In this document: in pieces, positions 35,056 to 49,551 of the stretch
Numbering within the stretch: the stretch's first letter is position 1
How the letters are laid out: each line of letters opens with the position of its first letter
Assembly: GCA_964554785.1 (NCBI GenBank)
Contig: CAZKPW010000002.1
Location: forward strand, 35,428-99,427
Direction of reading: 5' to 3'
Length of the DNA stretch: 64,000 nt
From: an uncultured Candidatus Peribacteria bacterium
GTDB lineage: Bacteria > Patescibacteriota > Gracilibacteria > Peribacterales > Peribacteraceae
Made by a program: the position numbers and the translations under genes
Notes under the pieces: generated by a model
The model's input: only the letters and a program-made list of their open reading frames with translations
Told to the model about the DNA's origin: nothing
Database searches by the model: none

Positions 35056-35628
35056 ATGGAACCTAGTGAATTGTCCGCTGTGCATGAATGCCAAGCGGGA
35101 AATCTATCCGCCTTCGATGCGCTCTATACGCTGCACGTCGATGCTGTCTACCGGTTTTTGCACCGGCGCACTCTCGTCAAAGAGATTGCCGAAGACCTGA
35201 CCAGCGTGACCTTCATGAAAGCCATGGAATCCATTCGTTCTTTCAAGTCCGATCGTGGCGAGTTCCGTGCGTGGCTGTATCGCATTGCCAGGAACTCCCT
35301 CATTGATTACTACCGCACCACGCGTCCATCGATTGATATTGAAACCGTGTGGGATCTCCCCAGTGATGACATGACGGAACTGCGCACCCAGCAACACATG
35401 GATGCAGACAAGCTTCACAAAGCACTGCACATACTCACCGCGGATCAGCGGAACATTGTACTTCTGCGCATGTGGGAAGGACTTTCCTACAAGGAAATTG
35501 CGGATTTGACTGGTAAAACCGAAACGAATGCGAAGGTGATTTTCTCCCGCTCCCTCCTTCGCCTTCGCGAAGGCTACGGCGGGCCTGCGGCTCTTTCTCT
35601 TCTGATTTTATTCCCAACACTTCTATGA
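35056..35628 (+). CDS. RNA polymerase sigma-70 factor, ECF subfamily
   Basis: Region 2: VYRFLHRR..EDLTSVTFMKA..FRAWLYRIARNSLIDYYR. Region 4: LTADQRNIVLLRMWEGLSYKEIADLTGKTETNAKVIFSRSLLRLRE. Confidence 0.9.
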   Translation: MEPSELSAVHECQAGNLSAFDALYTLHVDAVYRFLHRRTLVKEIAEDLTSVTFMKAMESIRSFKSDRGEFRAWLYRIARNSLIDYYRTTRPSIDIETVWDLPSDDMTELRTQQHMDADKLHKALHILTADQRNIVLLRMWEGLSYKEIADLTGKTETNAKVIFSRSLLRLREGYGGPAALSLLILFPTLL

Positions 35629-37178
35629 AGACTTCTATCACACAATTCTTGGCCGATCTCTACGAGATTGATCCGAGCCTGAAGGCTCACGAAGCAGAGC
35701 TAAAACCTCTGCTCGAAAAACTGATCGCCGAAGATCCATCGTCCGCACCGGATTCGGCCTTCGTCCAAAAACTCCGCATGCAACTGCGTGATCATGTAGC
35801 AAATTTGGAAGAGCAATCTGCAGGATCAGTCTGGCAGCGCTTTGGGTATCTCTTCAGCGCAGGAATAACCGCAGCGGTTATTATTCCCATTGCAGTCGTC
35901 CTTACAAACCAGCAACCTCTTACGCCCGGTGCGCCGCTCTTCAGTAACAGCGTGGAGACAACAGGTAAAAATGCATTCGGAAATCTGAGCGATATTGTTG
36001 CGGGAAATACCATGGTCGGTACCGATGCGCGCAGTATGCGTCCGCAGAGCGGAGGCGGCGGTCCGGAAAATGGTGCAATGCCAACCACTGCCGTCGAATC
36101 CTACGGCATGATGGATGATCGCATGATTATGCCGTGGCCGCAGGTGCAATACAGGTACGTCTTCAGCGGAGCACTCACAGATCTGCAGGACACTGTTTCC
36201 GTCTATAAGCGCAACTTCAAACCGCTCACGATTCCACTTTCTGCTCTGGCGGATAAGCTGAACATGGGTGGCCTGAACATGGGCTCCTTCAATGGCATGA
36301 ACGTAGAGAGCGTGTCCTTCGTGCAGCCTGTTTCCTACGGATACAGGATGTATGTGAACATGCTGGATTCCAGTGTGAGCATTGATGCCAACTACGAAAA
36401 GTGGCCTCAGTCCAAGTGTCAGACAGAAGCATGTTGGCAGGCGGAACGCGTGAAGATTGGAGATGTCCTCAGCGACACCGATGCTATTTCTATCGCACAA
36501 GCATTCGCGAAGGATCATGGAATTGACCTTTCCATCTACGGTACTCCAGAAGTCGATAACAACTGGCGCCGCGACTACGATCGCGCAACCGACAAGTCTT
36601 TGGTCTACGTTCCGGATCAGCAGCGCGTGATTTTCCCACAGCTTGTTGATGGCAAGCCCGTCTACGACCAGTCCGGTCTGAAGACAGGACTCAGCATCTC
36701 TGTGCAGGTAAAAGAGAAGAAAGTGATGAACGTCTACGGCATTGGTGACCACAGTTACCTCACCTCCGATTACGCAGGTGTGACAGATGCTGCTGCCATT
36801 CAGACATTCCTCAGCGGCATCGATAACTACAACTACTACATCGACCCCGCTGCGAGTGTCCGCGAAGGGGGTGCAAAGGATGCAGATGTGAAGAAAGTCA
36901 CTGTTATCCTTGGCGCACCGACTCTCTCCTACGCGCAGTACTACCGCTACACGCAGAACCGCAACGACGAACTCCTGATTCCGTCACTCGTGTTCCCGGT
37001 GGAACGTGTGGAAGGGGAAACCGAGAATGCGTATTACAGGCAGCAGGTGGTGGTGCCGCTTAGCAAGGAAATGCTGGAGGAAATGAGCAAGCGTCCGGAG
37101 GTGATGCCTATGGGGAGGGGTGGGGTGATTATGGATACGCCACAAACGAGTGTGGAGCCGGTGGTGATTGATCAGTAA
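35625..37178 (+). CDS. membrane-anchored protein co-transcribed with the ECF sigma factor (putative anti-sigma factor)
   Basis: ATGA start/stop overlap with the sigma gene. About 70 cytoplasmic aa, one TM helix (YLFSAGITAAVIIPIAVVL), and a large extracytoplasmic domain. Confidence 0.65.
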   Translation: MKTSITQFLADLYEIDPSLKAHEAELKPLLEKLIAEDPSSAPDSAFVQKLRMQLRDHVANLEEQSAGSVWQRFGYLFSAGITAAVIIPIAVVLTNQQPLTPGAPLFSNSVETTGKNAFGNLSDIVAGNTMVGTDARSMRPQSGGGGPENGAMPTTAVESYGMMDDRMIMPWPQVQYRYVFSGALTDLQDTVSVYKRNFKPLTIPLSALADKLNMGGLNMGSFNGMNVESVSFVQPVSYGYRMYVNMLDSSVSIDANYEKWPQSKCQTEACWQAERVKIGDVLSDTDAISIAQAFAKDHGIDLSIYGTPEVDNNWRRDYDRATDKSLVYVPDQQRVIFPQLVDGKPVYDQSGLKTGLSISVQVKEKKVMNVYGIGDHSYLTSDYAGVTDAAAIQTFLSGIDNYNYYIDPAASVREGGAKDADVKKVTVILGAPTLSYAQYYRYTQNRNDELLIPSLVFPVERVEGETENAYYRQQVVVPLSKEMLEEMSKRPEVMPMGRGGVIMDTPQTSVEPVVIDQ

Positions 37179-37249
37179 AAAGTTAGGTCAAGGTTTAGGT
37201 TGAGGGGTAAGGGCTTTGGGCTCTTATCCCTTTTCTTTAGCTAGTTTTT

Positions 37250-37277
37250 GAAAAAAAGAGTTTGCTTGAGTAGCAAA
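37250..37277 (-). terminator. candidate terminator of the ATPase-kinase operon
   Basis: Minus strand reads TTTGCT-ACTCA-AGCAAA, then CTC, then TTTTTTT. Confidence 0.45.
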
Positions 37278-37347
37278 TTTACTACTATTTATTCACCAGA
37301 ATTACTGAAGGTAAATTAGATAAAATAAAAAATTATAATTAATAGAT

Positions 37348-39399
37348 TCATACAGTAACAAGATATGCCCCTTGTTTATTTTGAGAAGTAAAGCGTTGGT
37401 TAATTGCAGAAAAATTGTTCTCACGCATATGCAAAGCCAAACTTAATAGCGATGCACGAACAATACCTGCCTGCTGATCAGGGTAGAAAAAATTTTGGCA
37501 AGTCACGATATATTTCACTGCTAGATAATCATCAATTGAGCCACTCAGTTTTTCCATGATTTCTACACATGCCTGGCGACACTGGATGCTAGTGTATACC
37601 GCGAGTCGCATGCCTACGGATGAGAGCAGGGCAGGATGTTTTGCTTTCACCTTGTCGTAGCATGCACCCATTAGAATGTCTAAGAATAGCTTTGATAATG
37701 CTTGCTCATCACCTGTCATGCGACAGCAGCCAAAGAGCATAGCTGATTCTAATCTTACAAGATCAAAACATGGATGCCCCGGGCCGCTTAAGGCATAATC
37801 AATAAAATGTGGCTGACGATCGCGCACTAAAATATTTCGCAATTGAACATCACCGTGCACACTCGCACGATTAAGCATGGTGGATGCCCTTTGCATTGCT
37901 TCAGTCCGAAGACAGAATATATCAATCGGCAAACCATCTGAATCAACAAATGACAGCTCAACGCCTCTCCTGAGTGCTTCTTCCACAGATTCTATGCCAA
38001 GCCATGCCTTACTTTCCATATTATTACTGGGCGTTAGACAATTAAGTTCGCTAATTTTTTTAACTGTAAATTCGATAAATTGACGCATATCATGCTCCAT
38101 TTGCGATCGTGCAGTGTCTTGTGCTGAGGGATTGATTTCATCGTATAGAATATTTTCCATCCGAGATTCCAATGTCGGCGCGGGTTCTCCTCGCTGATTA
38201 ATATCTTCAACAACAGAGAAAAGTATTAGAGCATTGCCATTGTGGTGAAATGGAGCAGGGTTGAGCGTGTCATCCCAAGGACGGATATACATTTGGAAGC
38301 GGTTCATTTCATCAGTTACTTCAGCCAGATTCGCAATTTTTGCGATTAACGGAGCTCCAATGTCATCTGGCTTTAAGTGTATAATATGCGCACCAGATCT
38401 TCCGCCTGTCAGTTTTTTTGTTTCCATTCGTGTCAGTTGTACATCGCGAATATTTCGATTTCGCACGATCTGAGCAGTGGCTGCTTGCAGTAGTTGCGTT
38501 TGTTGTAAATTTAATTCAGAGGATGCCATGTGAATGCTGTCCGTGCATGAGAGCGACTTGCTTGCAGTAGCAAGATTAACCAGTTCCACCATTCCGATTC
38601 TTGCGTCGTTTGCGATTGTTGACATTGCAGCACTTGCATTTCCACGACACATTTTGATCTCTTGTGAAATTTCAGCATGTGTAATTGCTAACCCATTTGT
38701 ATCTAGTTTGACGTAGCAGAAGCTCGAAAAGCAGAGAATATTTCTAAGAATTTTCAAATGCTGGTCATCTGGAAAATTACTCCAAAAACTTGCCGCGATA
38801 ATTATACCGCATACTTCATTTGCATGACCTGTAAGTAATTCCTCATAATTCTCTGGTGGTACTGCGGGAAGCGGAAAAAATCCTTTTGTCCTGAGGCGTA
38901 ATTTTGTCGCTTCATAATCGCTTGTAACTCCTAACAGAACCACAGTATTTACCCGTGCATCTTCAGAAATTCGGCCTTCTTCCGGTTGCGCCCTTGTCTC
39001 GACTGCGGGAATTACTATAAGTGTTGTCAGCGGAGGTGTAACAGGGACAGTTGTCGTTTTTATATTTTTCCCATATGGAATTCTTTTAAGATCGGGGGGG
39101 AGGATGAGATTGAGCGCATTACGTGCTTCATCAGACCACTTACGTCCAGTCTCAGCAAGCGCCAGCATTTCACTATATGGGAGTTCTACAGCCGTAAGCA
39201 CTAGATCAAGACGTCGCGCCATTTCAACTGGTCGCAACAGGGATTGTTGGATTGCCTCAACAGCATTGGTCATTGCAGAAAGAGCGGTTGGCGCTCTCGC
39301 TTTTTCTATTGCTCTAACAAAATCGTGATAGCCTGCTTCGAATGCACGAATATCTGGCTGTAGTAGAGGGGCCAGTAATGGGTCATTAATTGAAGTCAC
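37348..39399 (-). CDS. protein with C-terminal kinase-fold (APH / protein-kinase-like phosphotransferase) domain and an unknown N-terminal domain of about 330 aa
   Basis: Gly-rich LTGGRSGAHIIHL, Lys in PLIAKIA, catalytic loop VHGDVQLRNILV (37834..37857), and the DFG-equivalent FIDYALSG. The start lies 2 nt after the ATPase stop. Confidence 0.75.
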   Translation of the reverse strand: MTSINDPLLAPLLQPDIRAFEAGYHDFVRAIEKARAPTALSAMTNAVEAIQQSLLRPVEMARRLDLVLTAVELPYSEMLALAETGRKWSDEARNALNLILPPDLKRIPYGKNIKTTTVPVTPPLTTLIVIPAVETRAQPEEGRISEDARVNTVVLLGVTSDYEATKLRLRTKGFFPLPAVPPENYEELLTGHANEVCGIIIAASFWSNFPDDQHLKILRNILCFSSFCYVKLDTNGLAITHAEISQEIKMCRGNASAAMSTIANDARIGMVELVNLATASKSLSCTDSIHMASSELNLQQTQLLQAATAQIVRNRNIRDVQLTRMETKKLTGGRSGAHIIHLKPDDIGAPLIAKIANLAEVTDEMNRFQMYIRPWDDTLNPAPFHHNGNALILFSVVEDINQRGEPAPTLESRMENILYDEINPSAQDTARSQMEHDMRQFIEFTVKKISELNCLTPSNNMESKAWLGIESVEEALRRGVELSFVDSDGLPIDIFCLRTEAMQRASTMLNRASVHGDVQLRNILVRDRQPHFIDYALSGPGHPCFDLVRLESAMLFGCCRMTGDEQALSKLFLDILMGACYDKVKAKHPALLSSVGMRLAVYTSIQCRQACVEIMEKLSGSIDDYLAVKYIVTCQNFFYPDQQAGIVRASLLSLALHMRENNFSAINQRFTSQNKQGAYLVTV

Positions 39400-39401
39400 T
39401 A

Positions 39402-41285
39402 CTAACTCATGGAAAGCAGATCGTGATATTTTTCTTGTCGAAGCATAAAAGCTTTTGCACCTCCTTCTAGAATGCTTAAGATGTCACCCTTCATCTCATC
39501 AATTGAACCTGTTTTCGGGACTGCGGCAAGCATCGGATTTTCCATATCCATCACTACGACCTTATCCGCCTCTCCCAATACAGGAATATTTGCATTATGT
39601 GTTACGAAGATTAACTGACGTTGGATTTTAAGAGAACGAATTTGGTCGACAAGAGTTGTATAAATAAAGCGGTTATCCAAGTCATCCTCAGGTTGATCAA
39701 AGATAAGTGGATAGTCCGCAGGCCTCATAATAAGTGGGAGAAGCGCAGTCGCCATTTGACCACTCGAAAGTTGGCTGATCGACTTACTAATGGCACCGTC
39801 ATACAGAGTTATCTCAAGTTGGTCTTCCGGTATAACACCTTCAAGCTGGTAAAGATCGGGCACATCGAATAAATGCGTGATTAGTCGTGACATTTGTCCT
39901 AGATCACGATTCAGTAAATCAGTGAGTCTTTGAGATTCACCAGTTTCGACAATATCGATAAGATCCGCTGCGCGTACTTTTTCTGCCAGATCATGCACGA
40001 TTTCTTCTTGCCCACGCAGACCAGAGCCACTCAGGAGATGTAGAAGTAGTTCGACATAAGCTCCAGAGCGATTGCCGCGATCAATTGCCAATACCACTTG
40101 ATCACCACAACGATCGTTAATCTTTTGTGCCTCTGCTGTGCGCAATCCATAAATTTCATCATTAATCTGCGCGATTCGCTCGCGGAATTCATTGCGTTGA
40201 ATCAACAGGTTTTGCACTTCTTTTTCCATTAGCGTCAGTTGTTCTTGAAGTCGTAAACGTTGTGCAATCCCTTGCTTGAGAGCATCTTCCTGCTTCAGAC
40301 TCTCATTCACTGTCTGAGCATCTTGTAGTAATGTGTAATATCGAGTGTTTTTCTGCTCATATATAGATGCGAGTTGGGCGAGAGGTGCTTGCAATGATTT
40401 TTTAGTTTGCTCCACGATTGCTTGATTATTCTGCGAAAGGAAGGCTTGAAATTCGCGAAGTCCCTTGATGAGCTGTTCTGCTTCCAGCTCTTGTGCGACG
40501 TGCTCATCAAGCATGGACAAATCAATCGTGTCCATGGACGCCATTTGCAATGATGACAAAATAGAATCGCGAGTTTGCAATGCCCTATGAAACTGATCCA
40601 AAATATTCTTACGCTCCAAGAATCCCTGTCGCTCAGTCTCGAGTTCCTCAGGGAGTTTAGGCTGTGTTGATTGAAGCGTAGTGAGCCGCGACTGCAATTC
40701 AGGGAGTCCTTGTATGTCGGCTTTTAGTGCTTCTATATTCGCACGCTGTTCTCGTAATACTGGACCCAGTGAGGCAAGTGATGATGCATTTTTATTTCGC
40801 TCCTTATTAAGTTCATCAATGGTCGTTTTGTGTGGTCGATCGATTAAATCGAGTCGTCGCTCATTATGTTCTGCGATCTGTTGCAGATCACCTTGTGAGT
40901 AAATCTCCACTTGGTCCAAAATACTTACATCGGCAATTTCTTGTACACCTTGACGATAGATGCGTGGAGGAGTGAGACAATCGCGTTCGATCGAAAGCTC
41001 TTCTTTTCCAGTCAGCGTTTCTTCCATGACAATGCATTGTGCCATGCCTTCCCCAAGGGTGGCTTTAATCAAGCCATGTTGTGCTGAGGAATCGGAATTA
41101 CTCGTTTCCAAAAGAGCTTCCACTCGCTTTGGATCGCAGTTGAATGCAAATCGAATTGTTTCTATCACGGTTGATTTACATGTTCCGCGTGCACCAATTA
41201 TGCAAGTCAGCCCCGGTGCAAAGCTAATGGGCGCATTTTGCAGGAAGCCTGCATTTGTTTGAAGTGAAGCTATCCGAATGGCCAT
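39402..41285 (-). CDS. SMC/ABC-type coiled-coil ATPase (627 aa)
   Basis: P-loop GARGTCKST (41167..41196), with Cys where Gly is expected before Lys. Long heptad-rich middle region. ABC signature LSSGQ (39756..39770). Walker B/D-loop LIFDQPEDDLDN (39675..39701). H-loop FVTHNANIPV. Confidence 0.8.
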   Translation of the reverse strand: MAIRIASLQTNAGFLQNAPISFAPGLTCIIGARGTCKSTVIETIRFAFNCDPKRVEALLETSNSDSSAQHGLIKATLGEGMAQCIVMEETLTGKEELSIERDCLTPPRIYRQGVQEIADVSILDQVEIYSQGDLQQIAEHNERRLDLIDRPHKTTIDELNKERNKNASSLASLGPVLREQRANIEALKADIQGLPELQSRLTTLQSTQPKLPEELETERQGFLERKNILDQFHRALQTRDSILSSLQMASMDTIDLSMLDEHVAQELEAEQLIKGLREFQAFLSQNNQAIVEQTKKSLQAPLAQLASIYEQKNTRYYTLLQDAQTVNESLKQEDALKQGIAQRLRLQEQLTLMEKEVQNLLIQRNEFRERIAQINDEIYGLRTAEAQKINDRCGDQVVLAIDRGNRSGAYVELLLHLLSGSGLRGQEEIVHDLAEKVRAADLIDIVETGESQRLTDLLNRDLGQMSRLITHLFDVPDLYQLEGVIPEDQLEITLYDGAISKSISQLSSGQMATALLPLIMRPADYPLIFDQPEDDLDNRFIYTTLVDQIRSLKIQRQLIFVTHNANIPVLGEADKVVVMDMENPMLAAVPKTGSIDEMKGDILSILEGGAKAFMLRQEKYHDLLSMS

Positions 41286-41543
41286 ACAGAAGAGGGAGTA
41301 TACGGATCAAGCTATGCAATGGGACATAGTTGCTTAAGGGAGTTCACAAGATATTGTGTTTTATTTATCATGCAAACACTACATGTTGATTAATCATGTG
41401 ATAATTACATAGTACTCGTTCACTAAAGCAATATAAATTAATATAATCATCATCCATCATAAGAGAAGTGAAGGAAAAGCTCTGCACAATACTTCCACAT
41501 TCCTCCCATTGGCGCCCACCTCACGCCTCGCCTAACCTCACCC

Positions 41544-41798
41544 ATACCCGTCCTCCTCGCCCCGCGCTTCACTATCTTCATCCTGTGGTTAGCCTCCCCG
41601 TGGTTTACCGGTGTCTTCGAAACACGCCTGTGGCCCATCCTCAGATTCCTCTTCCTGCCGTTCACCCTCCTCTGGTACAGCGTCGTGGTGAACTGGTTTG
41701 GTGGACAGTGGGAATGGGTGCAGGTACTGGGATGGGTTTTGGCGTTGGTGATGGATTTGTCATCAAGTAAGAAGAGTACCGAAAGAAAAAGAGCATAA
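41544..41798 (+). pseudogene. decayed paralog of the small membrane-protein gene at 43904..44167
   Basis: Aligns by eye at the nucleotide level with 43904..44167. ATA replaces the ATG start (41544..41546) and about 6 codons are deleted. There is no in-frame ATG/GTG/TTG until near the end, yet the frame stays open (..PRFTIFILWLASPWFTGVFETRLWPIL..). Confidence 0.6.
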
Positions 41799-43903: not shown

Positions 43904-44167
43904 ATGCCCATCATCCTCGCCTTCATCGGCCTCATTGCCCCGCGCTTCACTATTTTCCTTCTGTGGTTAGCCTCCACTTGGTTCACCGGCGTCTTCGACA
44001 CACGCCTGTGGCCCATCCTCGGATTTTTGTTCCTGCCGTTCTCACTCCTTTGGTACAGCGTCGTTATCAACTGGTTTGGTGGTGAATGGGGATGGCTGCA
44101 AATTCTTGTAATGGTTATTGCGGTGGTGATGGATTTGGGTTCTTCCAAGAAGAGCGCGAGGAGATAA
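43904..44167 (+). CDS. small Trp-rich membrane protein (87 aa)
   Basis: MPIILAFIGLIAPRFTIFLLWLASTWFTGVFDTRLWPILGF..., two to three TM helices. A decayed paralog lies at 41544..41798. Confidence 0.55.
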   Translation: MPIILAFIGLIAPRFTIFLLWLASTWFTGVFDTRLWPILGFLFLPFSLLWYSVVINWFGGEWGWLQILVMVIAVVMDLGSSKKSARR

Positions 44168-49137: not shown

Positions 49138-49551
49138 GGGGATGACAGGCTTCGACAGCGTGATTCTGGATATGTGTCGCCTCGATCCGGGATGGCAACG
49201 GTTCCCGATACCCACTTGTTGCAAAAACAACTGCAGCTAAACCTGCTACGGCTCGCCTTGAGAAGGGTCTCCGTTTCGCTCAGTCTCTGAGCGGAATGCG
49301 TTCCTTCGCTTTCGCAGCCTAAGTTTCCCTTTAGCGGAAACACGCTTTACCTTCTATCCTCACTAAAAGGATAAGGCGTTATCAGTGAGGTGGGATCAGT
49401 GTCTGACAGTGCACTGCTCCGACATCCCTCTGTCATCCTCACACTCTATCCTTGTTTCTTCCTAAGGAACTGTGAGTAACGGAAGATTCATGATCGTACT
49501 GGCACCATGTTCACACGTTGGACCCCGGTTCAATTCCGGGCATCTCCACCA
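49138..49551 (+). ncRNA. ssrA: tmRNA (SsrA)
   Basis: 5-prime GGGGATGACAGGCTTCGACAGCG. 3-prime tRNA-like end CCCGG-TTCAATT-CCGGG CATCTCC A CCA. The acceptor pairing includes the G3:U alanine identity pair. The internal tag frame ends ..SFAFAA-TAA (49221..49322). Confidence 0.95.

Follow-up and report, generated by a model that had tools for sequence, protein, structure and literature searches.

Results

Two adjoining genes on the minus strand

We analysed a 64-kb stretch of DNA (64,000 nucleotides; hereafter the window) from a contig of an uncultured Candidatus Peribacteria bacterium (CAZKPW010000002.1). In its minus strand, two adjoining genes form a cassette that encodes an ABC/SMC-type ATPase (gene 1) and a kinase-fold partner (gene 2). 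A preliminary description, made from the sequence alone, had placed the two genes 2 nt apart, and the open reading frames (ORFs) and their junction agree: the TAG stop codon of gene 1 is followed by 2 nt and then by the GTG start codon of gene 2, a start that is backed by an N-terminal alignment with the homologue P0002 (32% identical). Because this GTG sits 2 nt past the stop codon, the junction suggests translational coupling of the two genes. The genes and the parts of their products are located as follows, in window coordinates.

39402..41285, minus strand: gene 1, ATPase of 627 amino acids (ORF list)
41169..41195, minus strand: Walker A motif GARGTCKST of gene 1, residues 31-39 (invariant in 23 homologues)
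39579..39770, minus strand: C-terminal half of the ATPase head, with LSSGQ, LIFDQPEDDLDN and THNANIPV invariant
37348..39399, minus strand: gene 2, kinase-fold partner of 683 amino acids (ORF list)
39109..39372, minus strand: N-terminal helical bundle of gene 2, residues 10-97 (AlphaFold model)
38530..38952, minus strand: CheY-like/flavodoxin-like five-stranded alpha/beta domain of gene 2, residues 150-290 (model)
37420..38508, minus strand: APH/choline-kinase-type kinase domain of gene 2, residues 298-660 (Foldseek and conservation)

Gene 1 is a relative of the Ppl and TrlF ATPases

The predicted product of gene 1 has the hallmarks of the ABC/SMC-type superfamily, namely a Walker A motif, a signature motif, a Walker B motif with D-loop, and an H-loop. 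The motifs quoted for both proteins in the preliminary description were all found at the residues to which they map; in gene 1, LSSGQ occupies residues 506-510, the Walker B/D-loop LIFDQPEDDLDN residues 527-538 and the H-loop THNANIPV residues 562-569. The search returned 277 homologues, mostly of about 630 amino acids and 42-54% identical, and GARGTCKST, LSSGQ, LIFDQPEDDLD and THNAN were invariant in the 23 that were compared. The cysteine in the Walker A motif is invariant in the clade of ATPases that are paired with a kinase gene, while a distant clade, fused to a PHP domain, has the canonical GGRG[TAS]GKST. Judged by these alignments, the cysteine is a clade-defining P-loop substitution.

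Pfam matched gene 1 to SMC_N and AAA_21. The SMC_N match aligns residues 17-581 to profile positions 17-213, and about 470 residues lie between the Walker A and signature motifs. This insertion resembled SMC3 and a designed coiled coil in a sequence search of the PDB, and LmuB in PADLOC. We read the protein as a split head with a long helical insertion that may form a coiled coil. The PDB sequence search yielded no solved relative of gene 1 beyond generic SMC heads.

The best named family for gene 1 was NCBIfam TrlF_fam_ATP (NF045780; 6.1e-84), in which it aligns to profile positions 295-944 of 944, with the first 294 positions (PHP) unmatched. Membership in this family was rejected, as the score of 283.4 bits is below the cutoff of 350 and the profile is covered at 295-944 only. 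The match to NCBIfam Ppl_antiphage (NF042955; 7e-36) covers residues 17-618 and starts at profile position 270, and PADLOC Ppl (PDLC02208; 8e-23) showed strong likeness in the C-terminal head. Membership in the Ppl system was rejected as well, on the basis of 123.5 bits against an equivalog cutoff of 1000 and the lack of a fused PHP domain: Pfam found no PHP match in gene 1, and the Walker A motif at residues 31-39 leaves no space for one. Gene 1 is thus best described, from its profile alignments, as a PHP-less relative of the Ppl/TrlF ATPases.

Orthology to housekeeping RecN, SbcC or RecF proteins, which would refute the earlier reading of gene 1, was rejected: there was no equivalog match, Rad50 scored 18 bits, the nearest relatives are Ppl and TrlF, and synteny is not conserved, the flanking genes varying from locus to locus. 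One close ATPase homologue, P0025 (900 amino acids), is 51% identical over the full query and extends about 270 amino acids further at its N-terminus. No Pfam family matches this extension, which may reflect a wrongly called start codon or a fused domain that has gone unrecognised.

Gene 2 carries an intact kinase fold behind two N-terminal domains

Gene 2 passes the Pfam family TCAD9 (PF19974) with 49.6 bits against a gathering threshold of 40 (E = 4.3e-13), and its homologues score 48-82 bits; the match on gene 2 covers mainly the region of the catalytic loop. The Pfam APH match was weak (3e-5), PADLOC gave no match, and no NCBIfam model came near its cutoff. The family assembled by an exhaustive profile search numbers 422 representatives, of which 187 have E < 1e-30; almost every member is 640-680 amino acids long and has the same full-length architecture. 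A word-indexed search, also when run with a 14-sequence alignment, recovered only the gene 2 protein and one relative.

The AlphaFold model of gene 2, built with a 71-sequence alignment, reached a mean predicted local distance difference test score (pLDDT) of 90.1 and a predicted template modelling score (pTM) of 0.81. It comprises the helical bundle, a disordered linker at residues 115-146, the alpha/beta domain and the kinase domain. In the last of these, a Gly-rich loop (GGRSGA, 332-337), K354, E364, HGDVQLRN (515-522), IDY (533-535) and GPGHPCFDL (539-547) were located. K354, E364, H515-G516-D517 and D534 are the same in all 71 homologues compared, and N522 is nearly invariant. Because these residues are kept across sequences only 23-38% identical to gene 2, the predicted catalytic apparatus is under strong purifying selection. 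The best Foldseek match of the kinase domain was APH(3')-Ia (4e-6), together with methylthioribose (MTR) kinase and choline kinase, and the model places the domain in the small-molecule-kinase branch of the fold. The kinase fold that had been proposed is therefore not degenerate; its catalytic site appears intact, and gene 2 is predicted to be an active kinase. A sequence search of the PDB found no solved relative of gene 2, and a fold search of BFVD returned generic kinase matches only.

The N-terminal half of gene 2 had been called unassignable. This stands in so far as no significant Foldseek neighbour was found (all E > 0.1) and no Pfam or NCBIfam model matches the helical and alpha/beta domains, but the half does resolve into two structural parts, and the N-terminal 300 residues modelled alone gave a pLDDT of 87.9. 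The best-fitting matches of the alpha/beta domain were CheY-like receivers (template modelling scores of 0.55-0.65, E > 0.1), and the position of the phospho-acceptor Asp is taken by a conserved serine, S204. For these two reasons a genuine receiver (REC) identity was rejected, and residues 150-290 are described as a pseudo-receiver-like domain, a term that denotes resemblance of the modelled fold only.

The two genes are inherited as a unit

In all four ATPase contexts recovered by exact-protein look-up, a TCAD9/APH protein of 650-670 amino acids lay directly downstream. A scan of one genome per species gave 80 ATPase loci, which divided cleanly into two groups. Stand-alone ATPases of about 630 amino acids make up the close clade (36-63% identity), in which the kinase gene lies directly downstream in every locus; the members of the distant clade (25-29% identity) are PHP-fused and about 900 amino acids long, and none has the kinase. 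From the kinase side, 41 metagenome loci extend 500 nt or more upstream; the ATPase was directly upstream in 35 of them, among these every one of the 32 that match the kinase strongly, and two further kinase-side look-ups showed the same pairing. The spacing between the two genes ranged from a 4-nt overlap to about +15 nt.

Pairwise identities of the ATPases and of the kinases were correlated with r = 0.96 (590 pairs, 35 loci), a value reached by none of 2000 Mantel permutations. The partner evolves faster, with a mean identity of 29% compared to 44% for the ATPase. The co-occurrence of the two families, which the preliminary description had named as a check, is thus found across genomes as strict adjacency, and the ATPase and kinase genes are inherited as a unit. 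A conserved third gene was sought and rejected, as the adjoining genes vary (PLD-like, Abi_C, PIG-L-like, PIN-TPR) and the flanking genes differed in every pair locus examined.

Distribution, decayed copies and base composition

The pair is patchily spread over Planctomycetota, Acidobacteriota, Myxococcota, Verrucomicrobiota and Eremiobacterota-type metagenome-assembled genomes.

Decayed cassettes were seen as well. Both genes are fragmented in loci L013 (9992-13848) and L079 (9986-13790), the ATPase is frameshifted in L014 (9944-11906), and in L139-L141 short remnants of the two genes are left side by side. These copies fit accessory, dispensable genes.

The cassette has a G+C content of 42.8% compared to 48.5% in the rest of the window; it is the lowest-G+C 4.3-kb stretch of the 64 kb, about 2.9 standard deviations under the mean. 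Its two genes have G+C fractions at third codon positions (GC3) of 0.34 and 0.38, and no other ORF among the roughly 40 in the window is as low. The low-G+C island reported earlier is therefore real, although its flanks top out at about 0.54 in 500-nt windows and do not reach the 0.65 first given. The patchy spread, the pseudogenised copies and the lowest G+C and GC3 of the window together indicate that the pair behaves as accessory genes.

Related loci combine the same modules differently

The PHP-fused TrlF/Ppl-like ATPases (about 900 amino acids) have a partner of their own: a conserved protein of about 390-415 amino acids is encoded downstream, with a gap of -3 to +13 nt. This partner, typically of about 410 amino acids, carries SLFN_AlbA_2 and HATPase_c_4 and was found in about 40 of about 65 PHP-fused loci (L016-L082; e.g., L018:9152-13105 and L032:9173-13098). 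The PHP-fused ATPase and the SLFN_AlbA_2 protein appear to form a second conserved two-gene arrangement in the ATPase lineage.

On the kinase side, five loci without the ATPase encode a sister subfamily of 775-780 amino acids (L130:4296-6617, L136:1850-4189, L131, L135 and L138). In these proteins, an ImmA/IrrE-type Peptidase_M78 domain replaces the helical bundle and is fused to the alpha/beta and kinase unit, which aligns to gene 2 residues 128-551. The sister-subfamily gene of L130 adjoins an Mrr-type restriction endonuclease (Mrr_cat).

The ATPase chassis thus takes different outputs, and the kinase unit takes different front ends. Module swapping of this kind is characteristic of conflict systems. 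Because the helical bundle (residues 10-97) is confined to ATPase-paired proteins and is replaced by M78 in the sister subfamily, the data suggest that it may be a docking element for the ATPase.

Defence genes adjoin the pair in other genomes

In Tautonia, the pair lies near a type I restriction-modification (R-M) system with Schlafen-like and PLD-like genes. Elsewhere it adjoins a type IIG R-M enzyme and an Abi_C protein, QatA and QatC, a PIN-TPR-GreABC protein, or a HipA/HTH pair, and capP-like, Bil/E1-E2-like, TraF/TraH and DUF932 genes were found among its other neighbours. The expectation of defence genes beside the pair was borne out in these several genomes; in the window itself there is no defence island.

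Flanks of the cassette in the window

Two AT-rich spacers bound the cassette.

41286..41449, no strand assigned: AT-rich region 5' of gene 1, holding the palindrome TGATTAATCA at 41387-41396
37179..37347, no strand assigned: AT-rich spacer 3' of gene 2, with a plus-strand terminator and a weak hairpin inside

The hairpin at 37250-37277, previously taken for a terminator of the island, was not upheld: it falls below the criteria of the terminator scanner and has a fold z-score of -0.25. The strong terminator in this spacer (37202-37232) is on the plus strand and belongs to the convergent gene upstream of the island. The palindrome exists as described, but the same word was also present in 13 of 100 shuffles of the window and is not above chance; in a spacer this rich in AT, the occurrence of a 10-nt palindrome is no surprise.

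A search for att-like or target-site direct repeats on either side of the island found none, and no tRNA gene adjoins it. The nearest RNA gene is a transfer-messenger RNA (tmRNA) gene 7.7 kb off (49138-49551), whose predicted tag peptide, AAKPATARLEKGLRFAQSLSGMRSFAFAA, is unusually long; no link to the island was found. A decayed gene duplicate beside the island had been regarded as a recombination scar. The truncated copy is real: positions 41560-41775 are about 85% identical to a small hydrophobic ORF at 43904-44167 (87 amino acids), and the copy is 5'-truncated and lacks a start codon, its remaining frame being open. Nothing ties it mechanistically to insertion of the island, and with no direct repeats present it carries little weight as a scar.

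On the other side, positions 35056-37178 hold an extracytoplasmic function (ECF)-type sigma factor (Sigma70_r2/r4) that overlaps a 517-amino-acid ORF by 4 nt. The ORF has no Pfam match and is possibly an anti-sigma partner; the pair stops at the strong terminator at 37202-37232, which faces the island.

Discussion

Comparison with known systems

No named system with both genes was found in PADLOC v2, NCBIfam release 20 or Pfam, and a full-text literature search did not turn up a description of the pair, although an earlier computational mention is possible. For TrlF, the literature search returned spectroscopy papers only, and TCAD9 was mentioned in passing only. The earlier statement that no described system joins exactly these two components holds to this extent, but each of the two proteins is assignable to a described superfamily.

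Ppl shares with the cassette a homologous ABC/SMC-type ATPase with a long helical insertion. It differs in being a single gene with PHP and ATPase parts, whereas the cassette has two genes, no PHP domain, a kinase-fold partner and a cysteine in Walker A. The TrlF-like PHP-fused clade likewise has two genes, the downstream partner being tightly coupled, but its ATPases are 25-29% identical, PHP is present, and the partner is the SLFN_AlbA_2/HATPase_c_4 protein and not a kinase.

Lamassu, PARIS, Septu and Gabija follow the same logic of a coiled-coil/ABC ATPase with an exchangeable enzymatic partner, and gene 1 gave weak partial matches to LmuB and AriA (PADLOC, with AriA also in the PDB; E of 1e-6 to 1e-9). 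Unlike these systems, the cassette has no LmuA/LmuC, AriB TOPRIM, PtuB HNH or GajB, and its partner is a kinase and not a nuclease. Membership in Lamassu or PARIS was rejected, since the only conserved neighbour of the ATPase is the kinase-fold protein, which has no PADLOC match.

TCAD9 is a kinase-like domain whose name derives from the vWA-MoxR-VMAP ternary conflict systems (Kaur et al., 2020, PMC7159879; PMC10910872), and the eLife paper mentions rare active APH-type kinases among their effectors. Gene 2 has the TCAD9 domain in common with them and accompanies an SMC-like ATPase here. Membership was rejected, as vWA, MoxR and VMAP are outside the 25 commonest Pfam families among 103 neighbours in 15 loci; they were also not seen in the pair contexts inspected individually. 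A protein-kinase-like fold occurs in a defence-type context in Stk2, PglW (BREX type 2/Pgl), TerY-P and HipA-like DS-6 as well, and a defence role has been validated for kinases of the HipA family and others (PMC13092281). Gene 2 differs from these in belonging to the APH/choline-kinase branch and not to the Hanks-type or HipA kinases, in matching no PADLOC kinase model, and in being coupled to an SMC-like ATPase. From its sequence relationships, the pair is a candidate ATPase-gated defence-type system with a new output.

Favoured interpretation

We consider, with a probability of roughly 60%, that the two genes are one conserved, mobile unit whose most likely role is defence against phage or other invading DNA. 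This reading is favoured because the nearest named relatives of the ATPase are anti-phage proteins, the pairing is strict, modules are swapped between related families, and defence genes are among the neighbours. The earlier reading of a sensor ATPase with a kinase effector is supported, with the defence function reached by inference.

In the mechanism that we propose, the ATPase, in which the PHP phosphoesterase that its relatives carry as a fusion has been lost, would be probably dimeric and act as a sensor or regulator, and would form a physical complex with its partner by binding the N-terminal helical bundle. An infection cue, which might be foreign DNA, DNA ends or a phage protein, would trigger the system by altering the ATP-dependent engagement of the ATPase heads, and this could activate or release the kinase. 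The substrate that the kinase then phosphorylates could be a target of host or phage origin, or else a small molecule (a nucleotide or cofactor, for example), and phage replication would be blocked or the infection aborted.

Several observations weigh against this interpretation. The cassette is surrounded in the window by housekeeping genes (alanyl-tRNA synthetase, two histidine kinases, the ECF sigma factor, PstSCAB and the tmRNA gene), and a site scan found no minus-strand sigma-70-like promoter 5' of gene 1. The defence-gene neighbourhood is suggestive, being a tally of cases and not an enrichment figure. Kinase relatives were absent from the sequenced plasmids, phages and IMG/VR contigs that were searched, so that horizontal mobility of the cassette is inferred from composition and patchiness only. 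The closest structural matches of the modelled kinase domain are small-molecule kinases, which leaves some probability for a metabolic or resistance role. Ppl itself is described as mechanistically uncharacterised (PMC11482910), so the analogy with it gives a design and not a mechanism.

Alternative explanations

Among the alternatives, the one that survives best, though we consider it unlikely, reverses the roles of the two proteins. The kinase-fold protein would be the sensor or regulator, with a pseudo-receiver that binds a nucleotide or other ligand, and would autophosphorylate or phosphorylate the ATPase; the SMC-like ATPase would do the effector's work, either by clamping or compacting foreign DNA or through recruitment of host nucleases. 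The cassette indeed has no nuclease or classical killing domain by Pfam, PADLOC or NCBIfam, the receiver-like domain of the partner is typical of signalling proteins, and the faster evolution of the partner (29% vs 44%) would be expected of a component that touches invader molecules. Yet in the PHP-fused relatives it is the variable enzymatic module that takes the effector position of other ATPase systems, and the alpha/beta and kinase unit recurs, behind an M78 front end, as an output module in its own right. Complete conservation of the catalytic machinery also argues for true phosphotransfer to a substrate.

Slightly less probable again is a role outside immunity, in which the pair would be an accessory module for stress, DNA repair or small-molecule modification. 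It could, for example, couple an ABC-type ATPase to the activity of a kinase for antibiotics or metabolites and have been acquired horizontally to serve a niche function. In structure, gene 2 is closest to aminoglycoside, methylthioribose and choline kinases, the ATPase head has a weak sequence match to an ARE ABC-F protein, the neighbours in the window are housekeeping genes, and no copies were found in the phage, plasmid and IMG/VR collections. Against this, the ATPase is a single split head with an SMC/Rad50-type insertion and not a tandem-nucleotide-binding-domain ABC-F protein or transporter, and among named proteins it is closest to anti-phage ones. In other genomes, R-M, Qat, Abi, HipA and PIN-TPR genes are repeatedly found beside the pair, and frequent pseudogenisation with partner swapping is typical of conflict systems.

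The least probable explanation is a selfish toxin-antitoxin (TA)-like addiction cassette, a kinase toxin restrained by the ATPase and kept by post-segregational killing, which would suit a tight two-gene operon with overlapping or near-overlapping frames, the HipA-type and other TA-like genes that adjoin some loci, and the patchy spread with decayed copies, but which fits poorly with multi-domain proteins of 627 and 683 amino acids unlike typical antitoxins, with the lack of a DNA-binding autoregulator and with the absence of plasmid copies among those seen, and which in any case overlaps the defence interpretation, as many TA-like cassettes act as abortive-infection defences.

Significance

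A further step beyond the defence interpretation, to which we give slightly less than even odds, is that the pair founds a new anti-phage or anti-plasmid family, in which a Ppl-lineage SMC-like ATPase would control an APH-type kinase, and phosphorylation by this kinase, be it of a small molecule, a nucleotide or a protein, would be the immune output. If this is true, the cassette would bring new effector chemistry to ATPase-gated defences, and, if validated, a kinase output would join ABC/SMC-ATPase-gated immunity, whose known effectors are mostly nucleases. Given that the kinase domain is assigned to the small-molecule-kinase branch and is accompanied by a pseudo-receiver-like domain, its substrate could reveal new immune chemistry.

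The main hosts of the pair belong to the poorly studied Planctomycetota, Acidobacteriota, Myxococcota and Verrucomicrobiota, which may explain why it is missing from the defence catalogues that were checked. The cassette would, if validated, give a handle on the Ppl/TrlF ATPases. If the proposal is correct, these ATPases would be a sensor chassis of general use whose output can be exchanged, be it a fused PHP domain, a Schlafen/AlbA_2 protein or a kinase; the three outputs suggest a shared sensing chassis, the trigger of which would lend itself to comparative study.

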